Sequence record: OR896157.1
Reading direction: 5' to 3' (one strand)
DNA: 64,000 nt
From: a phage
Made by a program: the position numbers and the translations under genes. The notes under the pieces were generated by a model. The model had not been told where the DNA came from, ran no database searches, and saw only the letters and a program-made list of their open reading frames with translations. Shown one piece after another: positions 5,731-63,489 of this stretch; the first letter of the stretch is position 1, and each line of letters opens with the position of its first letter.

Positions 5731-5744
5731 GGGCCCGAAGGCCC
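5731..5744 (-). terminator. GGGCC-CGAA-GGCCC hairpin between small ORF and ndd
   Basis: GC stem with CGAA loop; weak U-tract, so may act as RNA stability/processing element rather than terminator. Confidence 0.3.
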
Positions 5745-6984: not shown

Positions 6985-7014
6985 TCCTCAAAAATAAAGG
7001 GCCCGAAGGCCCTT
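6985..7014 (-). terminator. intrinsic terminator-like hairpin after rIIB (AAGGGCC-TTCG-GGCCCTT then U-rich)
   Basis: minus strand reads hairpin followed by UAUUUUU. Confidence 0.5.
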
Positions 7015-10713: not shown

Positions 10714-10733
10714 GGGACTCCCGAAGGAGTCCC
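10714..10733 (-). terminator. intrinsic terminator (GGGACTCC-TTCG-GGAGTCCC then AUUUUUAU)
   Basis: 8-bp GC-rich stem, CGAA loop, U-tract on minus strand. Confidence 0.55.
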
Positions 10734-10934: not shown

Positions 10935-12779
10935 TTATTCGCTCATCCAGACCTTGCGTGGAGCAGCATCAGAACCCATAACCATCTCGAAGAGTTCTTT
11001 CCAGTTTTCCGGAAGAGAAACTACATCATAATGAGGTTCTTGGATTACTCGTTCATATTCGTCTTCTTCCAAAGAACCGAGCCCTTTGATGTAACGAAGT
11101 TTCCAACCAGCAAGTTCATCTTTTTCAGCTTCATATTCAGCGGCAGTGTAATACCACTTCTGTTTGTCTCCTTTACTCATAATGATAACAGGAGTTTTGA
11201 CGAAGCGAATTCGACCTTCTTCAAACAGACGAGGCCAATTACTAAAGAATGCCAAAAGACTTGGATAGATTGAACCTGTTCCGTCAACATCCGCGTCAGT
11301 CATGATAGCGATGTTTTTGTAGTTCAGATTTTCATAATCTTCACCAATAGTCAGTCCAGTGATTGCACAGATATCGAAGACTTCTTTGTTCTTCATTGCT
11401 TCTGCTGCAGTCATTCCCCAAGTATTCAGGAACTTACCACGAAGTGGATAACCACCATGAAGTTTACGGTCACGAGTAGTCAGAAGATAACCAATCGCAG
11501 AATCACCTTCTGTTAAGAACAGAGTGGTTTCTTCTTTATCATTACCATAAAGTTCTGGCTTAATGTGTTTAGCAACCTTAGCTTTTGAAGCAGCTTTTGC
11601 AGCTTTAGTTTCAGCAGCTTTTTCTGCCGCCAATTTACGAGCCAACATAGCTTCAATAATTGGCATATGAATTGCTTCGGACTTCATAACTTGTTGAGCA
11701 AGTTTTTTGTAGTCCAAATTCAAATGAGCTTTAACTTCACCCCACGGAGATGTCAGACGTTCTTTAGTCTGAGAATCAAATCGCATGTTGCTCATATCAC
11801 GAACGAACATCACAAAAGTAAAACACTCTTTGATACGAGCTTTGTTTACTTCCAATTTGTACTTGCGTTTGAGCATTGGGATAAGTTCATTTGACAATTC
11901 GTCGACAACCAAATCAACGTGAGAACCACCCTTAGAAGTATGAATGTTATTCACGTAAGTCAGTTGGCGGAAACCATCATCAGAACGACCAATTGCAATT
12001 GAACAATTATCTTCATCAGCTACAATAGCTTCTTCATCAAATTGCTTAGCGAATTTCTTGAATCCGCCATTGACTTTTTTGCCTTGGAATTTGAATTCAA
12101 TATCCGGGAATACTACCGCCAGAGTTTGAAGACGGTCCAGAACAATTGATTCATCTACTTCTGTAAGTCCTGAACTTTCGAAGTGACTGAAGTCAGGAAT
12201 GAACGATACTCGAGTTCCGGTCTTGGTTTGAATGAACTCTTTTTCCTTTGCTGGCTTACTATCCCAAGAGATATTCTCAGCCCCATTAGAGCATCGAACG
12301 ATGATTTCGTTTTGTCCGTCACAAGTAGCTCCTGCAAAAGTTACAGAGAAAATATTAGTCAGTGCAGAACCGACACCATTCATACCACCAGTTTTGCGTT
12401 CAGCATCATCGCCAAAGTTACCACCGGCACGTGGACGAGTCCAAGCAGCTACTGGTCCAGGAATTTCATCACCTTCTGGAGTGACTACTGGAGCTTGTGG
12501 AAGACCACGACCATTATCTGTTACGATAACTTTATTGCCTTTGAGCTCAACTGAAATTTTATTTGCAAACTTGAAGTTGGTACGAATTGCTTCATCGACT
12601 GAGTTATCAATGATTTCGTCAATCAGCTTGATTACGCCCGGAACATAAGTTACACTTTGGAATTTACCAAACAGAAAACGTTCATGAGCTTCCATAGCTG
12701 AAGAGCCGATGTACATACCAGAGCGCTTAATGATATGCTCTCGGTCTGACAGAATTTTAATTTCGTTCTTAATCATCAT
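10935..12779 (-). CDS. 39: DNA topoisomerase II large subunit gp39 (GyrB-like ATPase), single ORF covering the T4 39 plus 60 regions
   Basis: ATGATG start at 12779 (GAGGA RBS); GHKL ATPase motifs ...DEIIDNSVDEA... and ...VIVTDNGRGLP...; no split or bypass segment. Confidence 0.9.
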   Translation of the reverse strand: MMIKNEIKILSDREHIIKRSGMYIGSSAMEAHERFLFGKFQSVTYVPGVIKLIDEIIDNSVDEAIRTNFKFANKISVELKGNKVIVTDNGRGLPQAPVVTPEGDEIPGPVAAWTRPRAGGNFGDDAERKTGGMNGVGSALTNIFSVTFAGATCDGQNEIIVRCSNGAENISWDSKPAKEKEFIQTKTGTRVSFIPDFSHFESSGLTEVDESIVLDRLQTLAVVFPDIEFKFQGKKVNGGFKKFAKQFDEEAIVADEDNCSIAIGRSDDGFRQLTYVNNIHTSKGGSHVDLVVDELSNELIPMLKRKYKLEVNKARIKECFTFVMFVRDMSNMRFDSQTKERLTSPWGEVKAHLNLDYKKLAQQVMKSEAIHMPIIEAMLARKLAAEKAAETKAAKAASKAKVAKHIKPELYGNDKEETTLFLTEGDSAIGYLLTTRDRKLHGGYPLRGKFLNTWGMTAAEAMKNKEVFDICAITGLTIGEDYENLNYKNIAIMTDADVDGTGSIYPSLLAFFSNWPRLFEEGRIRFVKTPVIIMSKGDKQKWYYTAAEYEAEKDELAGWKLRYIKGLGSLEEDEYERVIQEPHYDVVSLPENWKELFEMVMGSDAAPRKVWMSE

Positions 12780-12824
12780 TTGTCCTCGTTTAGGTGAACA
12801 TTCTAACATTCAAATCTTAAAGCG

Positions 12825-13267: not shown

Positions 13268-13287
13268 AAAGGGCCCGAAGGCCCTTT
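13268..13287 (-). terminator. intrinsic terminator after the SGNH hydrolase gene (AAAGGGCC-TTCG-GGCCCTTT then UUGUUGUUU)
   Basis: hairpin starts right at the stop codon. Confidence 0.5.
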
Positions 13288-14849: not shown

Positions 14850-14857
14850 TATTTATT
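14850..14857 (-). promoter_or_regulatory. late-promoter-like motif AATAAATA, 27 nt upstream of the SGNH hydrolase ATG
   Basis: 7 of 8 match to T4 late consensus TATAAATA; same variant and spacing as upstream of soc. Confidence 0.3.
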
Positions 14858-15069
14858 TAAGCTTTACTAAAGAAAGGATGCTCATGGATAAAATTATGAG
14901 GCCAAGCGGCCAAAGAACGAGCATTGCGCTTTAATTGACGTAATTGTCGGCGAGTTAATGGAGTTGAAGTATAGCTTGAAATTGTACGCTTATTAATTTT
15001 GACTGAAGTCATAAAAGTCAAATCTTTGCGGTACGGATGTTTGCCAAAACTCTTTTTAATTTCCATCAT
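14857..15069 (-). CDS. hypothetical basic protein (70 aa)
   Basis: minus-strand ORF, 4-nt overlap with lipoprotein gene. Confidence 0.4.
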   Translation of the reverse strand: MMEIKKSFGKHPYRKDLTFMTSVKINKRTISSYTSTPLTRRQLRQLKRNARSLAAWPHNFIHEHPFFSKA

Positions 15070-19934: not shown

Positions 19935-20683
19935 ATTTTACCTCGAATAAGTTGAAACATTGAAGCAGACAATGGGAGACCTTTATTCAGCTTAGCTTTA
20001 TCAATAAAAGATAAGTTCTGGAAGCGAGTTAATCCCTTAATTACTATATCATAATTGTGGACAGAATTTTCTGCTTTTGTAGCCTTTTTAGTTGTAGTTG
20101 CAGCTTTTGAAGCCAACTTATCAGTGTTCCCAGAGACTTTACGAAGACGCTTAAGTTCAGCTTTGCCGCCAGTGATACGAGCCTGTAAAGACTTTTTCAC
20201 TTCCTCTGTGACACCCTTCTGCTTCATATGTTGTTCACGCTTAGCGATGTTGTTAAGAATAGCCAAGTACTGTTTGTGATACTTTTTGGCAATGCCGGCT
20301 AATGGGTCTTCTGATTCAGGTTCTTGTTGGTCTACGATGACGTGGCCGCCAGCATCTGCAGCGCGAACAATACGAGAAGCTAACTCATCTCGTTTCTCAA
20401 TCAGCTCCTCTAAGGAGAAGTTTCCACGGGCAGAATTGTACTTCTTCTTAACTGGGATGACATTACCCGGCACATAACCTTTGTCGTTGTCAAAACGCTC
20501 AAGTGTCATCATGTCATCGTTAACACCTTCACTAAATGGCTCACCTGAGTAAGCACATACTTTCTGTTGAGCGATGTTAGCAAGATACGCCATAGTTAAT
20601 CCAAAATCTTTTTGGCGTTTCGTAGCTGAAGCATAAGTGTTAACTAAACGAGTTGCAATGACAATTTCTAATGGCTTAGCCAT
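19931..20683 (-). CDS. hypothetical protein at the T4 srd position, with degenerate HNH-like motif
   Basis: CAYSGEPF...MTLERFDNDKGYVPGNV...N resembles an HNH motif with the Cys and His positions substituted; basic Lys/Ala-rich C-terminal half. Confidence 0.4.
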   Translation of the reverse strand: MAKPLEIVIATRLVNTYASATKRQKDFGLTMAYLANIAQQKVCAYSGEPFSEGVNDDMMTLERFDNDKGYVPGNVIPVKKKYNSARGNFSLEELIEKRDELASRIVRAADAGGHVIVDQQEPESEDPLAGIAKKYHKQYLAILNNIAKREQHMKQKGVTEEVKKSLQARITGGKAELKRLRKVSGNTDKLASKAATTTKKATKAENSVHNYDIVIKGLTRFQNLSFIDKAKLNKGLPLSASMFQLIRGKM

Positions 20684-20736
20684 ATGATATCCTTATATGC
20701 TTTTGCGAAAGTAGCGGTATAATGGTTTCAAGGAGT

Positions 20737-20765
20737 ATTCTATATCATCTGGTTCTGGTTGTAAA
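20737..20765 (-). promoter_or_regulatory. early promoter (TTTACA-17-TAGAAT)
   Basis: minus strand gaccgTTTACA, 17 nt, TAGAAT. Confidence 0.5.
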
Positions 20766-20768
20766 CGG

Positions 20769-21446
20769 TCAGAATGAAATAAGTTCTACATGATAAACTG
20801 TATGCATTCCACCTGGATTGAAATCAACGTCCTCAATGCTAGTTACTCGGAACTTCGTTCCGATTGGCATCATCCATTCTTGTTCATCCTGGACCATATT
20901 GACTTTATTTTTACGGTCAATTTTTGCTTGTGGGTCATAAGGTGCTGCACTGAACTCGCAGTTAGGAGCTGCTAAAAGCAGCTTAAGCATATCTTCCTGA
21001 TAGTTGTAAGCCATCGTAGGGTTAGACCAGCTAATGATAGTCTTAGTTCCATAACATCCGAAACTAGCAAAGCTTCTTGCTGTGTTAAAGTCAGTTGAAA
21101 AGCTTACAACTTTTTCAGCAGTAAAAATTTCTCCAACTTCGATGTTACAAAGAACATTAAGCATTCGTCTGTTGACACCACGATAAAGCACTTCAGGAGT
21201 AGCAGTTGTCATACGACGACGAATGATTTTATCCAACCCAGCATTTACCCAATCTTCAACCTTATCGTTTAAACACTTCCATAGAACAGCTTGCTCTTTA
21301 TCTGTGAAGAGTTTGTTAACTTCAGATTCAAGCTGTCTGCGTTTTAGCTCTTCTGGGTCTTCCCAGTACTCGTACGTTCCACCGGATGGAACTGGAATTG
21401 ATGGTGTGATTTCTACTTCAATGACAGGACTTTGATAGAATGCCAT
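20769..21446 (-). CDS. ADP-ribosyltransferase, ModA/ModB-like
   Basis: ATG at 21446 after GGAGG RBS; R-S-E triad candidates LYRG, FSTD and QDEQEW in the right order. Confidence 0.6.
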   Translation of the reverse strand: MAFYQSPVIEVEITPSIPVPSGGTYEYWEDPEELKRRQLESEVNKLFTDKEQAVLWKCLNDKVEDWVNAGLDKIIRRRMTTATPEVLYRGVNRRMLNVLCNIEVGEIFTAEKVVSFSTDFNTARSFASFGCYGTKTIISWSNPTMAYNYQEDMLKLLLAAPNCEFSAAPYDPQAKIDRKNKVNMVQDEQEWMMPIGTKFRVTSIEDVDFNPGGMHTVYHVELISF

Positions 21447-21473
21447 GATAACCTCCGTTTGTTTACGGAAGCT

Positions 21474-21502
21474 ATCATAACACAGAAGAGAAGGGATGTA
21501 AA
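21474..21502 (-). promoter_or_regulatory. early promoter (TTTACA-17-TATGAT)
   Basis: upstream of the mod-like gene. Confidence 0.5.
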
Positions 21503-21505
21503 CAG

Positions 21506-21715
21506 CTATTTTGCCCAGGGAGTCCAAGGCGGAGGGTCTGCCCATAACGAGGACAGTTCTTCACATAAAGCTTTTGTGTAATCTACACCATGCTTTTTGA
21601 AGATTAGTTCTAACTCAGTAGCGATACTCTGGTCCACCTTCGGACCAGATTTCATATCAGCCTCAACATATCCTTCAGGAATGTCTTCTTCAAACATATC
21701 GAAAATGTTACTCAA
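21506..21715 (-). CDS. hypothetical acidic protein (69 aa)
   Basis: minus-strand ORF. Confidence 0.45.
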   Translation of the reverse strand: MSNIFDMFEEDIPEGYVEADMKSGPKVDQSIATELELIFKKHGVDYTKALCEELSSLWADPPPWTPWAK

Positions 21716-22269
21716 CGCGGAAGTGCCTCCGTTTTAGGAACACCTAAAAGATGCCAAATACCTCTACGAAAAAGAATCATATCAAATTGGTCTGTGATTA
21801 ACCAATTATTCACATGTGTAATTCCGTATCCATCAGTATCCATCATGTTTGGAATTTTCACAGTATCGACGCTTTTATCACCAAACTTGGGCTCTGGAAT
21901 AATGTTAATCAGATTAGTTTGTGGAATTTTCCAGCCACCAAGCAAGAAACTTTCTTGAACATCAAATGGAGAATTTTTAGTTTTCACATAAGTGTTGTAT
22001 TCTTTGATGATAACATCAACACCTTCAGGCCAACCATTTTTCAATTCACTTGGGTCAACATTATCACGACAACCAGTTCCATATTCTAAAAATGGATTAT
22101 AGCAGATAGCTACCATGATTTCCCTTTTATGAAGAGGATGCCTTTTATCGGTGAACGATGGAAAATCGCGAGAAACAAATTCCAACCCGAATGTAGTAAT
22201 TTTGTATTGTTTATCAGTCACAGGTGAAGCCTCCGCCAGTGTCACAGGATGTATTTGAGGGACTATCAA
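21712..22269 (-). CDS. hypothetical protein (up to 185 aa; start uncertain)
   Basis: minus-strand ORF overlapping upstream ORF; probably starts at an internal Met. Confidence 0.45.
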   Translation of the reverse strand: MIVPQIHPVTLAEASPVTDKQYKITTFGLEFVSRDFPSFTDKRHPLHKREIMVAICYNPFLEYGTGCRDNVDPSELKNGWPEGVDVIIKEYNTYVKTKNSPFDVQESFLLGGWKIPQTNLINIIPEPKFGDKSVDTVKIPNMMDTDGYGITHVNNWLITDQFDMILFRRGIWHLLGVPKTEALPR

Positions 22270-22618
22270 TATATGATGTTGTATGTATCATTGGACTATC
22301 AGAATAAGATGCTCTGGATGAACTAGAGTGATTCTGGCGATTAACTGGAGTATGAGTTACGCGTCCAGTATAAGTCTGTCCATTTCGTTGAACTTTCTCT
22401 TTCTTCGTTATCACTTCTTCCATCATTCCGTCGCCCATGTAAATCCATTCACGTTGTTCATTTGCGCCTTCCTCATATGCAACGGCCATATCATTGGCTC
22501 CATACATATGTTGATTGATGCTTTCATCAAGTCGAGCTTCTTCAGCTTTGATTTGGGTATCTGACCGAGGATTACCGAATAACCCTCTTACAAAATTCAT
22601 AATCATCAATAACTCCAA
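22214..22618 (-). CDS. hypothetical protein (start uncertain), Ser-rich C-terminus
   Basis: minus-strand ORF. Confidence 0.4.
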   Translation of the reverse strand: MELLMIMNFVRGLFGNPRSDTQIKAEEARLDESINQHMYGANDMAVAYEEGANEQREWIYMGDGMMEEVITKKEKVQRNGQTYTGRVTHTPVNRQNHSSSSRASYSDSPMIHTTSYIDSPSNTSCDTGGGFTCD

Positions 22619-22857
22619 TTCAAAAATTGAATGTTGAATACATTTCTTTTGTAAACGCCATCAACTTTAACTAAATCATAATACAGAACTTCAATAGCAC
22701 ATTCAAGAGATGTTCCAACTTCTCTGTAAGCATGTAACTTGACATCAACAAAGAAATCGGTATTAGTTTCTCTTTCTATATACTTTAAGCGAACTAAATC
22801 GCTGATTCCACCACAATCACCTACAGGTTTACGCCATGGAGTTGTTTTAACATTCAT
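22606..22857 (-). CDS. hypothetical protein (83 aa)
   Basis: ATG at 22857 after GAGGAAAA RBS (second in-frame ATG); first ATG overlaps the -10 element. Confidence 0.45.
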   Translation of the reverse strand: MNVKTTPWRKPVGDCGGISDLVRLKYIERETNTDFFVDVKLHAYREVGTSLECAIEVLYYDLVKVDGVYKRNVFNIQFLNWSY

Positions 22858-22882
22858 AGTATTTTCCTCATTTAGTGAAGTC

Positions 22883-22908
22883 ATTATACACTACTCTATA
22901 AAAGCAAA
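22883..22908 (-). promoter_or_regulatory. candidate MotA-dependent middle promoter (TTTGCTTTTA ... TATAAT)
   Basis: MotA-box-like TGCTT about 13 nt upstream of TATAAT, directly after the soc terminator. Confidence 0.35.
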
Positions 22909-22911
22909 AAA

Positions 22912-22931
22912 GGGACTCCCGAAGGAGTCCC
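22912..22931 (-). terminator. intrinsic terminator after soc (GGGACTCC-TTCG-GGAGTCCC then UUUUUU)
   Basis: strongest hairpin plus U-tract in the window. Confidence 0.6.
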
Positions 22932-22939
22932 TAAACTTA

Positions 22940-23176
22940 TTATTCAGAAGGCGTAACGTCAAACAGAGTTTCGTTAGCAGCAATCCACTCGGCACGCTGA
23001 TTTCGTTCAAACACCGTAGAATACGCTGGTTTTTCAGATGGGAAAACCTGGTAGTGAGCATTAGCGATACGATGAACGTCAGAATACAGTTCAAATGCTA
23101 CAGAAATTTCTTTACCTTTTACTTCACCAGCAGAAGTCTGATGATCGAAAGTTTTTACGTTTACATAACCGGCCAT
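22940..23176 (-). CDS. soc: Soc small outer capsid protein
   Basis: 78 aa; GYVNVKTF...GKEISVAFELYSDVHRIANAHYQVFPSEKPAYSTVFERNQRAEWIAANE matches remembered T4 Soc. Confidence 0.85.
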   Translation of the reverse strand: MAGYVNVKTFDHQTSAGEVKGKEISVAFELYSDVHRIANAHYQVFPSEKPAYSTVFERNQRAEWIAANETLFDVTPSE

Positions 23177-23204
23177 TGTAATCTCCTTTAATTAGTTACA
23201 AGTC

Positions 23205-23212
23205 TATTTATT
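23205..23212 (-). promoter_or_regulatory. late-promoter-like motif AATAAATA, 28 nt upstream of soc ATG
   Basis: soc is a late gene in T4; 7 of 8 match to TATAAATA. Confidence 0.35.
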
Positions 23213-23573
23213 CAATAATACTGGCAACCTGTAACTCAAAGTTTTTAGTTCTGATAGTTTCAATAGCCGAATTCATTTCTTCTGTGTTTCCGCTAACAAC
23301 AATATCAGAAAAACTTTCATGAAGATTAACGAGTTCTTCGCTTCTTTCCATGAACTCTTGTTGAGTTATTTCAAGTTTAAAGAACTCTTTAGGAACTTCA
23401 AAGGTGTATTGACCCTTGGCTGCGATAACCCATTTTCCAAAACTGGATTTTATAGCTACATAGTCTTCAGGAGTGTTAAACTTCCAATGAGCTCTGTCAG
23501 CGTAAGCCGTGCTATGCTCAGCCGGAGAAGCTGGTCTCCCAGCTTTCTGCCACGCGTAATAATCAAATTTCAT
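23208..23573 (-). CDS. hypothetical protein (121 aa)
   Basis: minus-strand ORF, 1-nt overlap with gene 56. Confidence 0.5.
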   Translation of the reverse strand: MKFDYYAWQKAGRPASPAEHSTAYADRAHWKFNTPEDYVAIKSSFGKWVIAAKGQYTFEVPKEFFKLEITQQEFMERSEELVNLHESFSDIVVSGNTEEMNSAIETIRTKNFELQVASIIE

Positions 23574-24091
23574 TAATAACCTCGGTCTTGTCGAGCAAAG
23601 TTCTCTGCGTTTTTCAGATAATAGAGTTTGAACACTTCTTCAGCTGTCATACCAAGAGCCATAATTTTATTCAGGAAGAAGTGTAACTGGTCAATCAACT
23701 CAAATTTAATTTCAAGCTGGTCTTCTGGTGATAAGTCTTTAATTTTCTTAGACTGCATTTCTACATGTTGAGCTTTCCAAGGTTTCCACACAGCAGATGC
23801 TGCTTTTTCACCATTGCTCATACCGCCAAGTGCAGTATACAATTCGCGAGTTTCGTCTGCGATATAATCATCTTGAGCTCGCAACCAAGCTAGTACTTCA
23901 CCTGCGGTTTCCAGAGAATCTGGATGACGATTACTGAATGGTTTATCTTCAGCAAGACGAACTTGAAGAGATTTCTGCATATCGAGCATTACTTGCAGAG
24001 GATCTTGATGATTATCAATTACTGCATTATACGCACCGTTTGCTTGGTCCGCGCCTTCAATTAGATGTGAGCATTCATTAAAATGAGCCAT
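23573..24091 (-). CDS. 56: dCTP pyrophosphatase gp56
   Basis: 172 aa; MAHFNEC.HLIEG...DPLQVMLDMQ...EIKFEL.D..HF.LN...LGM.AEE.FKLYYLKN.ENFARQDRGY matches remembered T4 gp56. Confidence 0.9.
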   Translation of the reverse strand: MAHFNECSHLIEGADQANGAYNAVIDNHQDPLQVMLDMQKSLQVRLAEDKPFSNRHPDSLETAGEVLAWLRAQDDYIADETRELYTALGGMSNGEKAASAVWKPWKAQHVEMQSKKIKDLSPEDQLEIKFELIDQLHFFLNKIMALGMTAEEVFKLYYLKNAENFARQDRGY

Positions 24092-24136
24092 TGTGTTTTC
24101 CTTTTGTCAAATCAGAAATAAATTATATCATTAACT

Positions 24137-24421
24137 TTATTTAGCAACGAATCCAAGGTTTTCAGACATTTTGCGGAATTTTTCCATCTTTTCAAATTTC
24201 TTCCAAACTTCTTCTCTGTCTTCTACGAAATCGAAATCAGTATGCACTCGCAAATTCAGAAGACAGCCCATGATGTCGTTTAATTCAGCTATTAATCTTT
24301 CACGATTAGTTTTGCCTTCATATTCTGAGTCAATTCCGAATTGAATAATCTTAGAGCAAAGCATTGCGACTTCAGTACATTCTTCGCCTAACTTAAGAAA
24401 GGCATGTTGTTCTTTATTCAT
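24137..24421 (-). CDS. hypothetical protein (94 aa)
   Basis: coupled ORF downstream of primase. Confidence 0.45.
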   Translation of the reverse strand: MNKEQHAFLKLGEECTEVAMLCSKIIQFGIDSEYEGKTNRERLIAELNDIMGCLLNLRVHTDFDFVEDREEVWKKFEKMEKFRKMSENLGFVAK

Positions 24422-25443
24422 ATTTTAGCATACCGAGTAAATCTCATCTTAGCCATTAAGCCTGATTCGATATTGTTGTTGATGTAATCCATGATTTGTT
24501 CAGGTGTAGCACCTTCTTTCATAATCATGTCGTTCACGTCTTTTGAAGACCAAGGTGACTTGTCCCAAAAGACGACTTTTTCTCCAGCATCAATAAGCTT
24601 CTTCATACGCTTTATTGTATCTGGATGACGAGGTTCATGGTCCATAATCCAAGCACGATTACCTTCATACGGAACCATGCTCAACTCAATAGAACCACCA
24701 GTAATTGCGATAGCATTGTTGATGAACAAACTATCTAATGGTCCTTCCATAACAAACACGAGCTTATTAGGGTCAACGGTATCTTGACCATAAATTTTCG
24801 TAGCAAGCTCATGAGCTTTAATTGTCATGTATTTTTGGGGAGCGTCTTTTGAGAGGGCTCGCCCTTGGAAGGATTCAATTTTGCCTTTTTCATTAAAGAT
24901 TGGAATAACCAAGCGCGGTTCATTTTTCTCATGTGAGTATGTACCTTCGTTTACTGAGTTAACGAGAGCCGGCCATTGAGTAGTAAACCACAGTCGGTTC
25001 CATTTATCTTTAGGAATTTTACGTCCTGCAACGTATTTACATATCGGATGAGCTGGTGAAAGCCTATCTAATCGCTCACAATAATCAAGCTTTTGAATGA
25101 ATTTCTTTTCAACCGGAGGAAGTTTAACTTCTTTCTTAGGAGCTGAACGAGCTTGACCTTGTTCTTTACGAACTTCAAGAATGTACTCTCGATATAAGTC
25201 AGGTTCATTTTCTCGCAGATATTTAGCTAATCCTAAGTGTGCATCACAGTTATAGCAATGGACTACAATTCCGCCAGTTGGTTGTTCATATGCCCATCCA
25301 CGAGCTTTGAATTGGTCTTTTTGTGAGTCACCACAAATTGGACAGCGGAAATTCAGTTTAAAACGATGACCGTTTGTTACTTGTTTGAATCTTGGAAGGT
25401 GTGAAAATGCGCGGTATGCAAATTCATTGTCGACCCATGACAT
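24418..25443 (-). CDS. 61: DNA primase gp61 (zinc ribbon plus TOPRIM)
   Basis: ATG at 25443; WVDNEFAYRA...FRCP.CGDS...CYNC zinc ribbon and C-terminal ...DKSPW.SKDVNDMI.KEGATPEQIM.Y..NNI..GLMAKMR...YAKI match remembered T4 gp61. Confidence 0.9.
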   Translation of the reverse strand: MSWVDNEFAYRAFSHLPRFKQVTNGHRFKLNFRCPICGDSQKDQFKARGWAYEQPTGGIVVHCYNCDAHLGLAKYLRENEPDLYREYILEVRKEQGQARSAPKKEVKLPPVEKKFIQKLDYCERLDRLSPAHPICKYVAGRKIPKDKWNRLWFTTQWPALVNSVNEGTYSHEKNEPRLVIPIFNEKGKIESFQGRALSKDAPQKYMTIKAHELATKIYGQDTVDPNKLVFVMEGPLDSLFINNAIAITGGSIELSMVPYEGNRAWIMDHEPRHPDTIKRMKKLIDAGEKVVFWDKSPWSSKDVNDMIMKEGATPEQIMDYINNNIESGLMAKMRFTRYAKI

Positions 25444-25486
25444 ATTATTCTCCAAAAGAATTGGCCTTATTTCTAAGGCCATTATA

Positions 25487-25951
25487 TCACAGTTTATTGA
25501 GATTTACTTTGATGCGCTTACGTTTCTTTGGTAGGGTCTCAGGACCTTTATTGGTGATTGCTCCGGTTGTGGTACCAGAGGCGATATTCTGGACACTTCC
25601 ACCGGAATCTCCGGCTACCATGTCCTCGAACAAGGGAAGAGCCTCAAATATCTCTTTTTGTTCGGATTCAGTGATATTGTAACGTGAAGCTACTGCAGAC
25701 CATGCACTCATCATGGATGCTACTCCATTGAGTCCTGGAACAGTTGTTAACATTCTTTTGATTGAACGAACCGATGCGTGGAAAGCTGTATAAGCCGCTT
25801 TCTCTTCTGGAGTAGTAGGTCGCTTCAGAACCGTACCCTTTTCATCGATTATCTTGGCTTCATATGCTTTCCATTCAGTGAATGGTTTTTGCATTAGCCG
25901 GATAAACTTATACGCATAGACGGCGTCAATACCGCTTTTAATAGTTGACAT
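25487..25951 (-). CDS. hypothetical protein (154 aa)
   Basis: minus-strand ORF with GGAGA RBS; ATAAATA motif 13 nt upstream. Confidence 0.5.
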   Translation of the reverse strand: MSTIKSGIDAVYAYKFIRLMQKPFTEWKAYEAKIIDEKGTVLKRPTTPEEKAAYTAFHASVRSIKRMLTTVPGLNGVASMMSAWSAVASRYNITESEQKEIFEALPLFEDMVAGDSGGSVQNIASGTTTGAITNKGPETLPKKRKRIKVNLNKL

Positions 25952-25966
25952 AGTCTCCTCTTCTAT

Positions 25967-26155
25967 TTATCGTTTAACACAAACGAATTTAGCAGAGGTT
26001 GAAAAATCACGAGCAGAAGTGCGCCACTCTTCACCAGCTTGGTTACACAGTTCTTCGGCAGTTGGGCCGGTTTGTGTTGGCTTGAATTCAATTTGGTTCA
26101 TAGCGACTCCGCCGTGTTCACTAATGAGAGTCATGATTAAAATGAATGTGTGCAT
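25967..26155 (-). CDS. hypothetical protein (62 aa)
   Basis: minus-strand ORF. Confidence 0.4.
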   Translation of the reverse strand: MHTFILIMTLISEHGGVAMNQIEFKPTQTGPTAEELCNQAGEEWRTSARDFSTSAKFVCVKR

Positions 26156-28431: not shown

Positions 28432-28818
28432 TTAAAATAGTTTGAAACGTTTTTTCTTTCTCATAATTTCGGCGTGAGCCTGTTGAATTTGTATTTTAAT
28501 ACATTTTTCAACATGTGGTGCAAGGTCGGCTTTTCGTGATTCGTCCAACGTAGAGAACTCTAGTGACACCTGGCCGCTTTCGTCCAAGTGTAATGAGGTA
28601 ACATATACGATATGTTCCTCGCCATCCTCTAGGGTTATCAGGATTTCCTGAACGACATTCTCCATAGCCTTTTGGACTATTTCTAGACTCTTTTTAAACA
28701 TCCGCTCAGTTCTTTCAAATTCCCCCTCCTGAGAGGGGGTTTCGTCCTGAACTTCAACTTCAGTCAAATCGAGGTCTAAGTCCTCGAAATTATTCTTCAT
28801 CGTAATTTTCCAGTTCAT
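28432..28818 (-). CDS. hypothetical acidic protein at the T4 gene 40 position
   Basis: sits between 41 and uvsX; sequence identity to T4 gp40 not recognised. Confidence 0.4.
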   Translation of the reverse strand: MNWKITMKNNFEDLDLDLTEVEVQDETPSQEGEFERTERMFKKSLEIVQKAMENVVQEILITLEDGEEHIVYVTSLHLDESGQVSLEFSTLDESRKADLAPHVEKCIKIQIQQAHAEIMRKKKRFKLF

Positions 28819-36195: not shown

Positions 36196-36235
36196 GAGTT
36201 TCCTTAGTTTTTCCTATAGACCGAGTGATTGGTCT
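36196..36235 (-). promoter_or_regulatory. gene 43 translational operator (5-bp stem, 8-nt loop AAUCACUC, then SD AAGGAAA)
   Basis: minus strand AGACC-aatcactc-GGTCT then ...ctaaggaaactcATG; loop is one substitution from the remembered T4 operator loop AAUAACUC. Confidence 0.55.
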
Positions 36236-36272
36236 TTGGTATGTCTATTATACTCCGCTCTGCTGATAGCAG

Positions 36273-36292
36273 AAAGGGCCCGAAGGCCCTTT
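36273..36292 (-). terminator. hairpin AAAGGGCC-TTCG-GGCCCTTT between regA side and gene 43
   Basis: GC stem, CGAA loop, followed by UUUCUGCU. Confidence 0.45.
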
Positions 36293-38342: not shown

Positions 38343-38374
38343 AATTTCCTCATATTGAATTAATCAAATCAGTG

Positions 38375-38394
38375 GATGGTCCGAAGACCATCCT
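38375..38394 (-). terminator. hairpin GGATGGTC-CGAA-GACCATCC between genes 45 and 44
   Basis: 8-bp stem with CGAA loop; no clear U-tract. Confidence 0.3.
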
Positions 38395-39723: not shown

Positions 39724-41408
39724 TCCAGTACCGTAAAGCGTCCAACTTTCTTCATTTGAAGATGTTGTCCGTATGCTTGAGGGTCATGGTCTCGGTGAGA
39801 AATTATAAAAATATTTGAATTTGGCATTTTACTAAGAATGTTATTAATTGCTTTAACACCCTCAGCATCGGTGGCGGAGTCAAAAATTTCATCTAAGAAC
39901 AGACAACTTATTTTAACACCAGATACCAATTCAGCAATATCACGCCAAGTAAATAACAGCGCAATATCAATACGAGCTTTCTCGCCTTGACTGAAAGAGT
40001 TATAACTAAACTCTTCGCGTCCTCGGGATTTAATCGTTTCGTTGAACTCTTCATTCAACGTAAAGACGTAATCCGCATCCATTATCTTCAAGTATGTATT
40101 AATCTGCTTATTGAACAGAGGAATGTACTTCTTAATGATTGCGCCTTTAATACCAGAATCCTTGAACATTTCTGTAAGAATACCACGTTGATATTTTTCC
40201 ATAACAATGTTGGATTTGGTATCAACTATTTTATTCAATTCTTCTGTAAGCGTTTTGATTTCATCTGAATAATCAATGAACTCTTCAGCTGCTTTATCAA
40301 TAGCTGCTTTAATCTTACGAATACGCTCTATAGCTGCTTTTAACTCTTCGGTTTTGGCTGCGACTTGTCCTCGGATGTCTCTGGCTCGGCGTTTAACCGC
40401 TTCATATTCAATTTGGGAAGCCTGAAGATTCTCTAGATGCGTTTTTAACTCAGCATGTTTGATATTACATTCATCAACTTTCGAGTTAATCTGGCCGATT
40501 AGAGCATCACTAGAGTGCAAATCCTGCAAACATGTTGGACAATGACCGCCTTTATCATACAACGACAGAACTTTTGTGTATGACTCGATGCGGTTCAGAA
40601 TAGTCATCCCAGCCATCTGAGTTTTCTGAATTCCTTCAGACACATCATCTTCTTCGCCAATTACGATGTTAGCCAAGTTCTTGTTCAGCTCGTCGATAGT
40701 TGAACGAATGTTACGAGCATCAGCCATAGACTCTTCGTACATACTCTGCCAACGAGCAACGTTTTCGCCAGAAAGTTTCTTTTGCTTCTCTATGTTTTCT
40801 TCATAGATTTTGATTTGTTGCTGAATTCCGTCTTTCTTTGCATCAAGAACTTGAACTTGAGAATTCAGTTCTCGAACCAAAGACTTATTCAGTTTATCCA
40901 TTTCAGCAATGATTGAAACTTCAAGCAGGTCTTCTACTAACTTTCTCCGAGCGGGTGTACTAAGACCCATAAACGGAGTGTAGCCTGCTGTTCCGAGTAC
41001 CACGACCTGCTTGAAACTCGTGTATGACATTCCAATGAGTTCTTCGAAATAACTTTGGAAGTCTTTAACTGAAGCTGCTTCATCAAGTTTAGCACCGTCG
41101 CGTTCAATTTCAAAGACATTTGGTTTCTGTCCACGTTTGATGTAATACGAATGACCGTCATATTCCATCCACAATTCGCAGAGCAATCCTTTCTTATTGG
41201 TGGAATTAATTAATTGGCCTTTCTTGAAATCACGGAATGGCTTACCAAACAATGCGAACGTAATCGCTTCAAGCATTGTACTTTTACCGGCACCATTCTT
41301 ACCAGTGATTAATGTTTTGTGAACCTTATCAAGTTGAATATCAATGGGCTGTCCGCCCACTGACATAATATTTTGATACTTGACTCGGTTCAATTTGAAA
41401 ATCTTCAT
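39720..41408 (-). CDS. 46: recombination endonuclease subunit gp46 (SbcC/Rad50-like ATPase)
   Basis: 562 aa; Walker A GKNGAGKST near N-terminus, long coiled-coil middle, C-terminal Walker B/D-loop region. Confidence 0.9.
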   Translation of the reverse strand: MKIFKLNRVKYQNIMSVGGQPIDIQLDKVHKTLITGKNGAGKSTMLEAITFALFGKPFRDFKKGQLINSTNKKGLLCELWMEYDGHSYYIKRGQKPNVFEIERDGAKLDEAASVKDFQSYFEELIGMSYTSFKQVVVLGTAGYTPFMGLSTPARRKLVEDLLEVSIIAEMDKLNKSLVRELNSQVQVLDAKKDGIQQQIKIYEENIEKQKKLSGENVARWQSMYEESMADARNIRSTIDELNKNLANIVIGEEDDVSEGIQKTQMAGMTILNRIESYTKVLSLYDKGGHCPTCLQDLHSSDALIGQINSKVDECNIKHAELKTHLENLQASQIEYEAVKRRARDIRGQVAAKTEELKAAIERIRKIKAAIDKAAEEFIDYSDEIKTLTEELNKIVDTKSNIVMEKYQRGILTEMFKDSGIKGAIIKKYIPLFNKQINTYLKIMDADYVFTLNEEFNETIKSRGREEFSYNSFSQGEKARIDIALLFTWRDIAELVSGVKISCLFLDEIFDSATDAEGVKAINNILSKMPNSNIFIISHRDHDPQAYGQHLQMKKVGRFTVLE

Positions 41409-42427: not shown

Positions 42428-42567
42428 TTCTTTTTCCTCAATTTAAGACGGCGATGTGGAAGTTTTATTTTAATCGCAGATGTATGTTCTCTTTTACCTG
42501 ATATTTGAATCCAGTTAATTTTCATATTTCACCTCAAAGAGATTATATTCTATACTCCAGAAAGCAG

Positions 42568-42587
42568 AAAGGGCCCGAAGGCCCTTT
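42568..42587 (-). terminator. hairpin AAAGGGCC-TTCG-GGCCCTTT upstream of gene 47
   Basis: GC stem, CGAA loop, followed by UUUCUGCUUUCU. Confidence 0.45.
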
Positions 42588-42774
42588 AAATTTTACTGTA
42601 TGTGATAGTTACTTCGGCTTTTGCTTTATCATATGACATCTTGAACCGCCTCATCATTTCAGTCTTGCCGTTATGAATCTTTGCATAATCAATAGCTCTT
42701 TCTAAAGCTTCAGCCGAATAAACAGTTCCGTTGCGGGATACTACAGCAGCTTTTAATATTACAGCTTCCACCAT
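42586..42774 (-). CDS. hypothetical protein (62 aa)
   Basis: minus-strand ORF. Confidence 0.4.
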   Translation of the reverse strand: MVEAVILKAAVVSRNGTVYSAEALERAIDYAKIHNGKTEMMRRFKMSYDKAKAEVTITYSKI

Positions 42775-42968
42775 GGCTTCACCATAATTGTATCAGCCCA
42801 GACTAATTCCTTTTTAGTAGCTTTAACTACTGGATTGATAGGACCGGTTTCACCCAAGACTTTGTAATGGGTTTCAGATACTTTAATAGCCATTACACCA
42901 TCAGCAACAGACAAAGTGAAACCTGCGTTTACTTTCAGACGTTTGAATTTAACCTGCTTTATAGCCAT
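42759..42968 (-). CDS. hypothetical protein (69 aa)
   Basis: minus-strand ORF. Confidence 0.4.
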   Translation of the reverse strand: MAIKQVKFKRLKVNAGFTLSVADGVMAIKVSETHYKVLGETGPINPVVKATKKELVWADTIMVKPWWKL

Positions 42969-43317
42969 TTAAAATTTCCCAGATCTGACGACGAGTGGTT
43001 TCCCATTGGACTTTGATAAGCTCGTCATTGAATGGTTGACGTAAGATTTTACGAGATTTTTCAATCGCATACTTATACGCCGCGAAGTTGTTATCGAGAA
43101 CTGATTGCTGAGCATGTTTGTTCAAACGTTCAAGTTCGCGACTATTTTTCTTGATAATTTTATCAGCTTTAGATTTAGCATTTGCTGCAATTCGAGCTTG
43201 TGCTTCTTCAATAGCTGCAAGACGATCTTCTTCCATTAATTTCTGATGGTCTGGATCTTCAATCAACTGGTCTTGATATTCAAGTTCTGCTTTGAATGCT
43301 TCGCCTGGTTGTAGCAT
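42949..43317 (-). CDS. hypothetical protein (122 aa)
   Basis: minus-strand ORF. Confidence 0.45.
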   Translation of the reverse strand: MLQPGEAFKAELEYQDQLIEDPDHQKLMEEDRLAAIEEAQARIAANAKSKADKIIKKNSRELERLNKHAQQSVLDNNFAAYKYAIEKSRKILRQPFNDELIKVQWETTRRQIWEILNGYKAG

Positions 43318-43323
43318 AATTCC

Positions 43324-43551
43324 TCATTCTGGAAAGTATTCTAATGTGATATAAAAATCATCATCAGATATATGGTAATTGTAGTTCAAGTCTTTGCCAT
43401 CGCACTTGAACTCTGTATCATGTGGGTTCTTGGGGTCGATGTGAATGTCCAAATCCAATACCTCCCTCATATACATTTTAAGCAAATAAGGGATAGCATC
43501 GTAATCGGGCACTTCTTCTAAAAATCCTGCGAGGTTAATCGTCAGCCTCAT
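43324..43551 (-). CDS. hypothetical protein (start uncertain)
   Basis: minus-strand ORF overlapping 3-prime end of gene 55. Confidence 0.4.
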
Positions 43552-45626: not shown

Positions 45627-45646
45627 CGGTCATAGAAATAAAAATG

Positions 45647-45665
45647 GGGACCACCAGGGTCCCCG
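45647..45665 (-). terminator. intrinsic terminator (GGGGACC-loop-GGTCCCC then AUUUUUAUUU)
   Basis: downstream of the nrdH region. Confidence 0.5.
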
Positions 45666-49173: not shown

Positions 49174-49181
49174 TATTTATA
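49174..49181 (-). promoter_or_regulatory. late promoter TATAAATA upstream of gene 49
   Basis: perfect 8-mer on minus strand 24 nt upstream of the gene 49 ATG; T4 gene 49 is known to have a late promoter. Confidence 0.55.
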
Positions 49182-54587: not shown

Positions 54588-54606
54588 GCCCCAGCGAAGC
54601 CGGGGC
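54588..54606 (-). terminator. intrinsic terminator (GCCCCGGC-loop-GCTGGGGC then AUUUUUGU)
   Basis: downstream of ORF 54612-55040. Confidence 0.5.
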
Positions 54607-59014: not shown

Positions 59015-59032
59015 AACCTCCCGAAGGAGGTT
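59015..59032 (-). terminator. intrinsic terminator (AACCTCC-TTCG-GGAGGTT then UUUGUUGUUUUU)
   Basis: hairpin begins at the stop codon of ORF 59031-59291. Confidence 0.55.
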
Positions 59033-59291: not shown

Positions 59292-60298
59292 CTGTAGTAA
59301 GAGTTGTGGTTCGCCAGATAAACTTCTTCAAGGAACTTGTCCCAGAATGTCATGTCAACTTTATCAGGCATACCGTTTTTAGAAGCGATGATGCTTTGAC
59401 GTTCAACTTCATCTACACAGTTTTCTAACCACTCTTGAACTTCTTTGAATGGAATAGTGCCGGCTTTAACTTTCTTGATGAACTCAGCATCTTTAAGCGG
59501 ATAAACCAAATCACCGGTTGTGTAGATTTCCTGGAGCTGAAGACCACCACGAAGAGCATGAGACAGAGCTTTCCAGTCTACACCTTCGTTAGCTTCTGCT
59601 TTACGAGCACGTTCACCGTATTCGTTCCAGAGCTTAGTAAGACTGTATTTCATTTCGGCAACAGTGATTGTTGTCTGGAATTTACGACCAAGCACGTTGT
59701 AGAACTTCTGAACGCCAGATTTGTGGTCAACAAAATCAGTCCACTCAAGGAACTCTGAAGTTGGAAGCAGATGAGCAATATCAGCAACTTTCCAACGAAC
59801 ATTGTGAGCTTTATCTTTTGGACGGTCTTCGTATTTCCATTCTGGATAAGGCTCTAATACTTCAAGAACTTTACGAAGTTCAGCTAAACGAGAACCTTTG
59901 ACACCATACTTAGCTGCTTGCTTACGAACATAACCAAGATAAGCTTTCATATCGGTGGTGTAGAAACGCCAGCGGTTGTCTTGGATAAATTTCCAGACAT
60001 CAGGCAGGTCAGATTTAACAATCAGATTAGCAGGAGTATGAAGCATATCAAGAGCAACAGTTTCTCCTGACTGAGCGAGTTCCAACCAATACTTGAGAGA
60101 ATAGAGTTCATGGTCAACGTCATCGTGAGAATTCTTTGTTGAAGTGTTGTTAGTATTCATATTAGTATGGTTCATTGCACGACCCATAAGAATATCTTTT
60201 GGGTGTGGAACGAAGATTTCTTTGAAGTCCGTGTCACTTTCTGGTGTTGACGTACCGTAAAGATGGCTACCGAAGTAGCCTTTCATAACTGTTTTCAT
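59288..60298 (-). CDS. Pol-beta-superfamily nucleotidyltransferase (336 aa)
   Basis: N-terminal GS-x10-DxD signature (GYFGSHLYGTSTPESDTDF) with a candidate third acidic residue in VALDMLH; long alpha-helical C-terminal region. Confidence 0.5.
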   Translation of the reverse strand: MKTVMKGYFGSHLYGTSTPESDTDFKEIFVPHPKDILMGRAMNHTNMNTNNTSTKNSHDDVDHELYSLKYWLELAQSGETVALDMLHTPANLIVKSDLPDVWKFIQDNRWRFYTTDMKAYLGYVRKQAAKYGVKGSRLAELRKVLEVLEPYPEWKYEDRPKDKAHNVRWKVADIAHLLPTSEFLEWTDFVDHKSGVQKFYNVLGRKFQTTITVAEMKYSLTKLWNEYGERARKAEANEGVDWKALSHALRGGLQLQEIYTTGDLVYPLKDAEFIKKVKAGTIPFKEVQEWLENCVDEVERQSIIASKNGMPDKVDMTFWDKFLEEVYLANHNSYYR

Positions 60299-63438: not shown

Positions 63439-63460
63439 CGGTTCCTTTAAAAACAACAAA

Positions 63461-63484
63461 AGCCCTGACCAAAAAAGTCAGGGC
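63461..63484 (-). terminator. intrinsic terminator (AGCCCTGAC-loop-GTCAGGGCT then UUUUGUUGUUUUU)
   Basis: 9-bp stem and U-tract downstream of ORF 63490-63882. Confidence 0.55.
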
Positions 63485-63489
63485 TCAAA

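Follow-up and report, generated by a model that had tools for sequence, protein, structure and literature searches.

UUCG-capped hairpins at gene boundaries of a T4-like phage belong to the T4 CUUCGG class

The window, i.e. the whole 64,000-nucleotide stretch of phage DNA analysed here, carries a real and clearly non-random family of short hairpins, which by loop, intergenic location and positions shared with T4 belongs to the CUUCGG class of that phage. The family is marked by its sequence, its strand bias, its location, the conservation of positions with changed stems, and its promoter context. Its members are very probably T4-like transcript-level stem-loops, which act as terminators or attenuators where a U-tract follows and as partial terminators or mRNA-end barriers at sites without one. 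Judged from sequence, both termination and stabilisation would take place at the window sites.

Megablast comparison of window positions 1-25000 and 20000-26000 with phage genomes revealed 98% identity to the Enterobacter phages SonariX and vB_Ecl_id4496 over the full length of the queries, and PG7 and other Karamvirus members showed 94-97% identity to the queried parts. By these matches the window can be assigned to a T4-like Enterobacter phage of the genus Karamvirus (Straboviridae, Tevenvirinae), and it represents the early/middle gene region of such a phage. Gene names were transferred from annotated PG7 and UFV01; they comprise motA, gene 52, rIIB, rIIA, a fused gene 60+39, hoc, dexA, dda, srd and modB, then soc, 56, 61, 41, uvsX, b-gt, 42, 43, regA, 62, 44 and 45, and finally 46, 47, 55, nrdG/D, 49 and nrdC onwards. 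Practically every gene lies on the minus strand. The G+C content is about 40%, and a simple minus-strand gene model assigns 93.7% of the window to coding sequence, leaving about 6% non-coding.

The hairpin initially flagged is located behind soc. Positions 22912-22931 read GGGACTCC-CGAA-GGAGTCCC, and an extra A-T pair extends the hairpin to 22911-22932. Since the genes are all on the minus strand, the loop of the RNA is UUCG, closed by C-G, and the CGAA loop named in the preliminary description is merely its complement. The minus-strand hairpin, AGGGACUCC-UUCG-GGAGUCCCU with 9 bp, is followed by UUUUUUGCUUUU and begins 7 nt past the soc stop codon; its fold amounts to -19.7 kcal/mol (z -4.0). 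It has the make-up of a canonical intrinsic terminator. After soc, T4 has AAGGACUCC-UUCG-GGAGUCCUU followed by U5; relative to it, the window hairpin carries a single compensatory change, A-U to G-C, and the two are clearly orthologous. Directly 3' of the soc hairpin lies a middle-promoter-like element (22883-22909, minus strand), which consists of a MotA-box-like UUUUGCUUUU matching the consensus at 9 of 10 positions, an 11 bp spacer and TATAAT (MotA-box consensus and spacing of 12+/-1 bp according to Hinton 2010, PMC2988021). The U-tract of the terminator also serves as the A/T-rich part of the MotA box. This is the layout of PmSL elements, the Mot-box cassettes of T4-like phages, the other type being the promoter-early stem-loop or PeSL (PMC2839356, PMC4122927).

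The sequence GGCCCGAAGGCC occurs exactly five times in the window (5732, 7000, 13272, 36277 and 42572) and CTCCCGAAGGAG three times (10718, 22916 and 59018), where shuffles lead one to expect 0.00 and 0.01 copies, respectively. A census of perfect UUCG hairpins on both strands (stems of at least 5 bp with at least 3 GC pairs) yielded 11, all of them on the minus strand; in 200 dinucleotide shuffles the mean was 0.095 and the maximum 2. When all minus-strand tetraloop hairpins with stems of at least 6 bp are considered, UUCG forms the loop of 10 out of 49, every other loop occurring at most twice. Stems of the hairpins measure 5-10 bp. The C-G closing pair is present in 10 of the 11 UUCG hairpins, that at 2784 being closed by U-G, and 10 of the 11 are intergenic. 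One at 60265-60280 (minus strand) lies within a coding sequence (GYFGSH) and is probably a chance occurrence. Twelve of the 13 family members fall into the ~6% non-coding part of the window, and 11 begin at -2 to +9 nt relative to the preceding stop codon.

All hairpin coordinates of the preliminary description hold, and the UUCG hairpins at 2784-2807 and 60265-60280 have to be added. Four sites had been listed there as relatives. All are real hairpins, and the one at 38374 does carry UUCG, on an unrelated stem, whereas those at 45646, 54588 and 63460 lack the tetraloop and are ordinary terminator hairpins with clear U-tracts. A U-rich tract had been called usual, which is true for eight of the 13 sites when the 8 nt behind the stem are required to contain at least 5 U (6997, 10714, 13268, 22911, 45646, 54588, 59015 and 63460). 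The hairpins at 2784, 5731 and 38374 have no proximal U-tract, and at 36273 and 42568 it is weak, with UUU inside the stem end followed by CUGCU. The fold calculation that had been suggested gave -13 to -25 kcal/mol with flanks (z -1.4 to -7), and the bare hairpins range from -10 to -17 kcal/mol by nearest-neighbour energies. UUCG is the classic exceptionally stable tetraloop; as the computed energies of the two strands are little apart (-19.7 versus -17.0 kcal/mol), this special stability rests on published thermodynamics and not on the computed folds. An Rfam scan of the whole window at the gathering threshold gave no matches, i.e. there is no curated family for these hairpins, which reflects curation, not novelty. 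The copies are scattered singly, as described before, 1-14 kb apart and each in a separate intergenic region, and do not form a regular repeat-spacer pattern; a CRISPR array was rejected on these grounds.

With regard to what follows them, the hairpins (all on the minus strand) fall into several groups. Downstream of those at 5731, 6997, 10714 and 38374 comes the next ribosome-binding site. At 5731-5744, GGGCC-UUCG-GGCCC (5 bp) is placed 4 nt past a stop codon and has GAGG ribosome-binding sequences downstream. The hairpin at 6997-7014, AAGGGCC-UUCG-GGCCCUU followed by UAUUUUUG, begins 3 nt past the rIIB stop, with the ribosome-binding site directly after it, and the one at 10714-10733, GGGACUCC-UUCG-GGAGUCCC followed by AUUUUUAUGAGG, begins 6 nt past a small ORF, itself downstream of the gene for the topoisomerase large subunit (gp60+39). 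Both would be canonical terminators. This large subunit is encoded by a single fused gene 60+39 ORF of 624 aa (10935-12809). The translational-bypass element of T4 gene 60 has a UUCG hairpin of its own; because genes 60 and 39 are fused, element and hairpin are absent, and the T4 bypass hairpin has no counterpart in the window. At 38374-38393, GGAUGGUC-UUCG-GACCAUCC is situated 8 nt past the gene 45 stop and 31 nt ahead of the gene 44 start. A hairpin occupies this position in all 21 relatives examined as well as in T4, and here it is likely an attenuator or a barrier at an RNA 3' end or processing site.

A T4-type early promoter, GTTTACA-N17-TACTAT, is found downstream of the hairpins at 2784, 45646, 59015 and 63460. 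The search pattern GTTTAC[AT]-N15-18-TA[CT][TA]AT has 13 matches on the minus strand (window 191-63439) and none on the plus strand, and four of the 13 lie at most 35 nt downstream of a family hairpin. The AU-rich UAGCAUCUUU-UUCG-GAAGAUGCUA (2784-2807, 10 bp) is intergenic, 9 nt past a stop codon and upstream of the motA homologue, with the promoter (2775-2746) in between. GGGGACC-CUGGU-GGUCCCC followed by AUUUUUAUUU (45646-45664), a putative terminator, precedes the promoter at 45627-45598. The hairpin at 59015-59032 overlaps a stop codon and lies upstream of the promoter at 58983-58954; its sequence is AACCUCC-UUCG-GGAGGUU followed by UUGUUGUUUUUG, and the stem is not the GGGACUCC formerly ascribed to it. 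The hairpin GAGCCCUGACU-UUUUU-GGUCAGGGCUU followed by UUGUUGUUUUU (63460-63486) has a U-rich loop; it begins 3 nt past a stop codon, reaches -25 kcal/mol with flanks (z -7), which points to a strong terminator, and is followed by the promoter at 63439-63410. Behind the hoc-like gene, 2 nt past its stop, AAAGGGCC-UUCG-GGCCCUUU followed by GUUGUUUAC (13268-13287) precedes a sigma-70-type promoter, TTTACT-N17-TAAAAT (13263-13235). Finally, GCCCCGGC-UUC-GCUGGGGC followed by AUUUUUGU (54588-54606), 5 nt past a stop codon, is a putative terminator with a CUUCG-like loop.

An early promoter is combined with a different kind of hairpin at the modB-like ADP-ribosyltransferase gene. There, a 19-bp hairpin (21440-21503, minus strand; -27 kcal/mol, z -7.2) pairs the Shine-Dalgarno sequence GGAGG and the AUG of the gene, and the -10 of a GTTTACA-N17-TATGAT promoter lies in its 5' arm. 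Transcripts that start at this promoter would consequently be devoid of the arm and open to translation, and those that read through from upstream would be closed. T4 modB and PG7 share this layout.

As at soc, the hairpins at 36273 and 42568 have a MotA-box-like TGCTT element behind them, with TATAAT 11-12 bp further on. The first of these, AAAGGGCC-UUCG-GGCCCUUU followed by CUGCUAUC (36273-36292), begins 2 nt past a small ORF downstream of regA; then come a deviant MotA box, a 12 bp spacer, TATAAT (36252-36247), an operator hairpin and gene 43. Its T4 orthologue between regA and 43 is AAGGGGC-UUCG-GCCCCUU. The operator-like hairpin, GACC-AAUCACUC-GGUC (36219-36236, minus strand), lies just 5' of the gene 43 ribosome-binding site, and a similar small hairpin with a AAUAACUC/AAUCACUC-type loop precedes gene 43 in most relatives examined; we take it to resemble the translational operator of T4 gp43 (DNA polymerase). 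The second, again AAAGGGCC-UUCG-GGCCCUUU but with CUGCUUUC behind it (42568-42587), overlaps the stop of an a-gt.2-like ORF and is followed upstream of gene 47 by the MotA box UUCUGCUUUC, a 12 bp spacer and TATAAT (42547-42542). Upstream of gene 47, relatives have a hairpin, a T-run, GCTTTA and a -10. The late-promoter consensus TATAAATA has one perfect copy in the window (49174-49181, minus strand), immediately ahead of the homologue of gene 49 (endonuclease VII). It is absent upstream of soc and hoc, where AATAAATA is found instead (23205-23212 and 14850-14860), so that a role of the soc and hoc terminators in ending late transcripts can only be inferred.

Comparison with T4 revealed minus-strand C(UUCG)G hairpins at the same junctions, namely after soc, regA/43, 45/44, a-gt/47.1, after a-gt.2, and 39.1/39. 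Except for soc, the T4 stems are wholly different from those of the window, while the loop and its closing pair are kept. We sampled ten diverse Straboviridae loci by tblastn with gp45, without any pre-selection for hairpins (RB9, Roth79, pEB20, CHI14, P896, fHe-Yen9-01, Acinetobacter phage AB-Navy71, Aeromonas phage AS-gz, phiEap-3 and the RB49-like PHB13). A hairpin is present just past the gp45 stop in all ten; the loop is UUCG in five, including the Acinetobacter phage, UACG in phiEap-3 and another sequence in four. Eleven relatives from IMG/VR likewise have a hairpin after gp45. It is important to note that all 20 UUCG hairpins in the ten Straboviridae loci are co-oriented with the genes. 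UFV01 has two such hairpins on the plus strand, both among tail-fibre genes of that strand, and eight on the minus strand, all of them among minus-strand genes. This orientation following transcription is the strongest control.

Between phages whose gp45 proteins are 89-92% identical, the stem at 45/44 has been replaced wholesale. Wholly different stems despite similar gp45 mean that turnover of the hairpin is much faster than that of the genes on either side. Stems at this junction in phages with gp45 89-92% identical to that of the window include AUGGGGU-UACG-GCCCCAU and UGGGCC-UUCG-GGCCCA. In a loop-anchored alignment of 25 hairpins, 91.5% of positions are paired, double-sided changes occur at 8 of 8 pairs, and covariation is 0.83 versus 0.18 after shuffling; because the aligned sequences were chosen as hairpins, this value overstates the support, and it illustrates stem turnover without being an independent test. 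A further conserved hairpin, CCCCCUC-loop-GAGGGGG, is located inside gene 40, about 50 nt past the uvsX stop (28722-28739, minus strand, in the window); its loop is UUCG in T4 (22329-22348) and UFV01 (40684-40701) and UCAG in the window.

The earlier suggestion of a terminator or RNA-stability family is thus borne out by intergenic, co-oriented hairpins a few nt past stop codons, by U-tracts at eight of 13 sites, and by the conservation of hairpins at matching positions in T4 as well as other Straboviridae. According to the mechanism we propose, the stem-loops would form in minus-strand mRNAs, each with a G+C-rich stem of 5-10 bp and a C(UUCG)G cap a few nt past the stop codon of the upstream gene, and would be selected for RNA stability and fast folding. 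At the eight sites with a U-tract they would function as Rho-independent terminators or attenuators for the host RNA polymerase, closing one transcription unit just before the next early or middle promoter or ribosome-binding site. In this way they may insulate neighbouring early, middle and late units from one another, e.g. after soc and the hoc-like gene, capsid-decoration genes that lie among early genes. At the five sites with a weak or no U-tract, intrinsic termination is doubtful because the canonical U-tract is missing. Here the hairpins would most likely be partial terminators or pause sites, and may also form barriers to 3'-exonucleases or processing, by which mRNA ends would be defined and stabilised. 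In the searchable literature, no relevant paper on 3'-end mapping or Term-seq of T4 was found.

The five sites without a proper proximal U-tract could also be taken to mean that the hairpins serve chiefly in RNA stability or processing, as 3'-exonuclease barriers or 5' stabilisers of processed mRNAs, with little useful termination. The hairpin at 38374, inside the 45-44-62 cluster and directly ahead of the gene 44 ribosome-binding site, would suit such a role. Moreover, the mRNA of T4 gene 32 is reportedly stabilised by a 5' CUUCGG hairpin (PMC8948821), and nuclease protection of delayed-early RNA is discussed in Hinton 2010 (PMC2988021). However, textbook U-tracts are present at eight sites, and a new promoter right after several hairpins makes sense only if upstream transcription stops. 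The stem-loops of PeSL elements, which were cloned into lacZ fusions as a test, have also been called effective terminators (Arbiol 2010, PMC2839356). The termination and stability roles are compatible. We regard a mainly stabilising function with little termination as unlikely.

A second proposal goes beyond transcription and holds that PeSL/PmSL cassettes are additionally homology patches for gene shuffling between T4-like phages, which would make the hairpins a semi-mobile family. PeSL/PmSL elements have been proposed to promote modular recombination, and recombination between cassettes is reported to yield indels and mini-circles (PMC2839356, PMC4122927). In the window, five cassettes combine a stem-loop with TTTACW-N17-TAYWAT (2784, 13268, 45646, 59015 and 63460) and three a stem-loop with a MotA box and a -10 (22911, 42568 and, with a deviant box, 36273), in agreement with the published definitions. 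The same 20-nt stems are found again at sites that are not homologous to each other (AAAGGGCC..GGCCCUUU at three, GGGACUCC..GGAGUCCC at two), and the wholesale stem swap at 45/44 between close relatives points in the same direction. Homology to UFV01 breaks at the soc gene, 14 nt upstream of its hairpin (22946-23524), and homology to PG7 beside the hairpin at 42568, in the a-gt.2-to-a-gt.4 region (42441-43407); both breaks are consistent with cassette-mediated gene replacement. Yet only 2 of 13 homology breaks relative to PG7 and UFV01 are within 120 nt of a hairpin, where about 0.7 would be expected, which in this crude test is not significant and suggestive at most, and several hairpins reside in conserved core clusters (regA/43 and 45/44). 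On balance, this additional role seems rather improbable.

More speculative is a translation-coupled variant. Because hairpins lie 2-9 nt past stop codons, a terminating ribosome would cover them, and the closeness of ribosome and RNA polymerase might then set the extent of termination; identical stems with fused promoter elements, in which the U-tract runs into the MotA box, would in addition be recombination linkers that carry gene cassettes between Karamvirus and other T4-like phages. We consider this combination doubtful.

Action at the DNA level, as cruciforms or single-strand hairpins for replication, packaging or protein binding, is very hard to reconcile with the data. The stems are perfect palindromes and could therefore form on either DNA strand, and Arbiol et al. 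speculated that a DNA-binding protein might target GGGG...CCCC stems (PMC2839356). But a DNA palindrome needs neither an asymmetric loop, which is co-oriented with transcription in 41 of 41 cases, nor a U-tract on the RNA-like strand, nor a position just past stop codons; DNA-level cruciforms were rejected on account of the strict co-orientation. Least probable of all, to the point of being negligible, are miniature mobile elements of the MITE/REP type spread by transposition: the same 12-20 nt palindromes do occur at many sites, but the flank comparison suggested as a mobility check, carried out all against all over 100 nt, returned only 9-13 nt promoter-motif matches (CCGTTTACAT, GATACTAT) and neither terminal repeats nor target duplications, so that the family is not of this type, and the positions are orthologous with T4 despite different stems, with a strict relation to strand and stop codon that points to selection at the RNA level. 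Although negative in the transposon sense, this outcome leaves hairpin-plus-promoter cassettes that do match PeSL/PmSL elements.

The transcript-level stem-loops that we favour are of practical value only and make no open question newly testable. Annotations of T4-like genomes usually omit them; if they are marked along with the neighbouring early and middle promoters, the transcription units of the window phage are delimited and some gene starts corrected. They also show in textbook fashion how selection favours a single tetraloop in the transcriptome of a virus.

The hairpins are already known, as a T4 feature since 1988, extended to T4-like phages as PeSL/PmSL in 2010-2014. CUUCGG hairpins were described by Tuerk et al. 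(1988, PNAS 85:1364, pmid 2449689). As summarised in PMC8948821, they are intergenic and 'especially abundant in T4 phages', with complementary arms about 2-8 nt long; they halt reverse transcriptase and serve diverse functions, among them the stabilisation of mRNA. The window hairpins resemble those of T4 in loop, closing pair, stem lengths, intergenic place and co-orientation with transcription, and share orthologous positions (soc, regA/43, 45/44, upstream of 47) in phages of the same subfamily. They differ in that the window phage favours GGGCC/GGCCC and GGGACUCC/GGAGUCCC stems. Published PeSL features are the T4/PST promoter TTTACW-N17-TAYWAT and, in nt-1, an A3-4G3-loop-C3T3-4 stem (PMC2839356, PMC4122927). 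With these elements the window shares intergenic stem-loops that are immediately followed by an early (TTTACW-N17-TAYWAT) or Mot-box middle promoter, and its stem form A3G3..C3T3 equals the nt-1 consensus. In contrast, several window hairpins stand alone without a promoter, and the UUCG loop is never mentioned in the PeSL papers (0 occurrences). Bacterial Rho-independent terminators likewise combine a GC-rich hairpin with a U-tract downstream of a stop codon, and an upstream A-tract often lengthens the stem; the window family, however, is strongly biased to one tetraloop, and about a third of it has no U-tract. The window copies are orthologous or analogous members of these known elements in an already sequenced genus.
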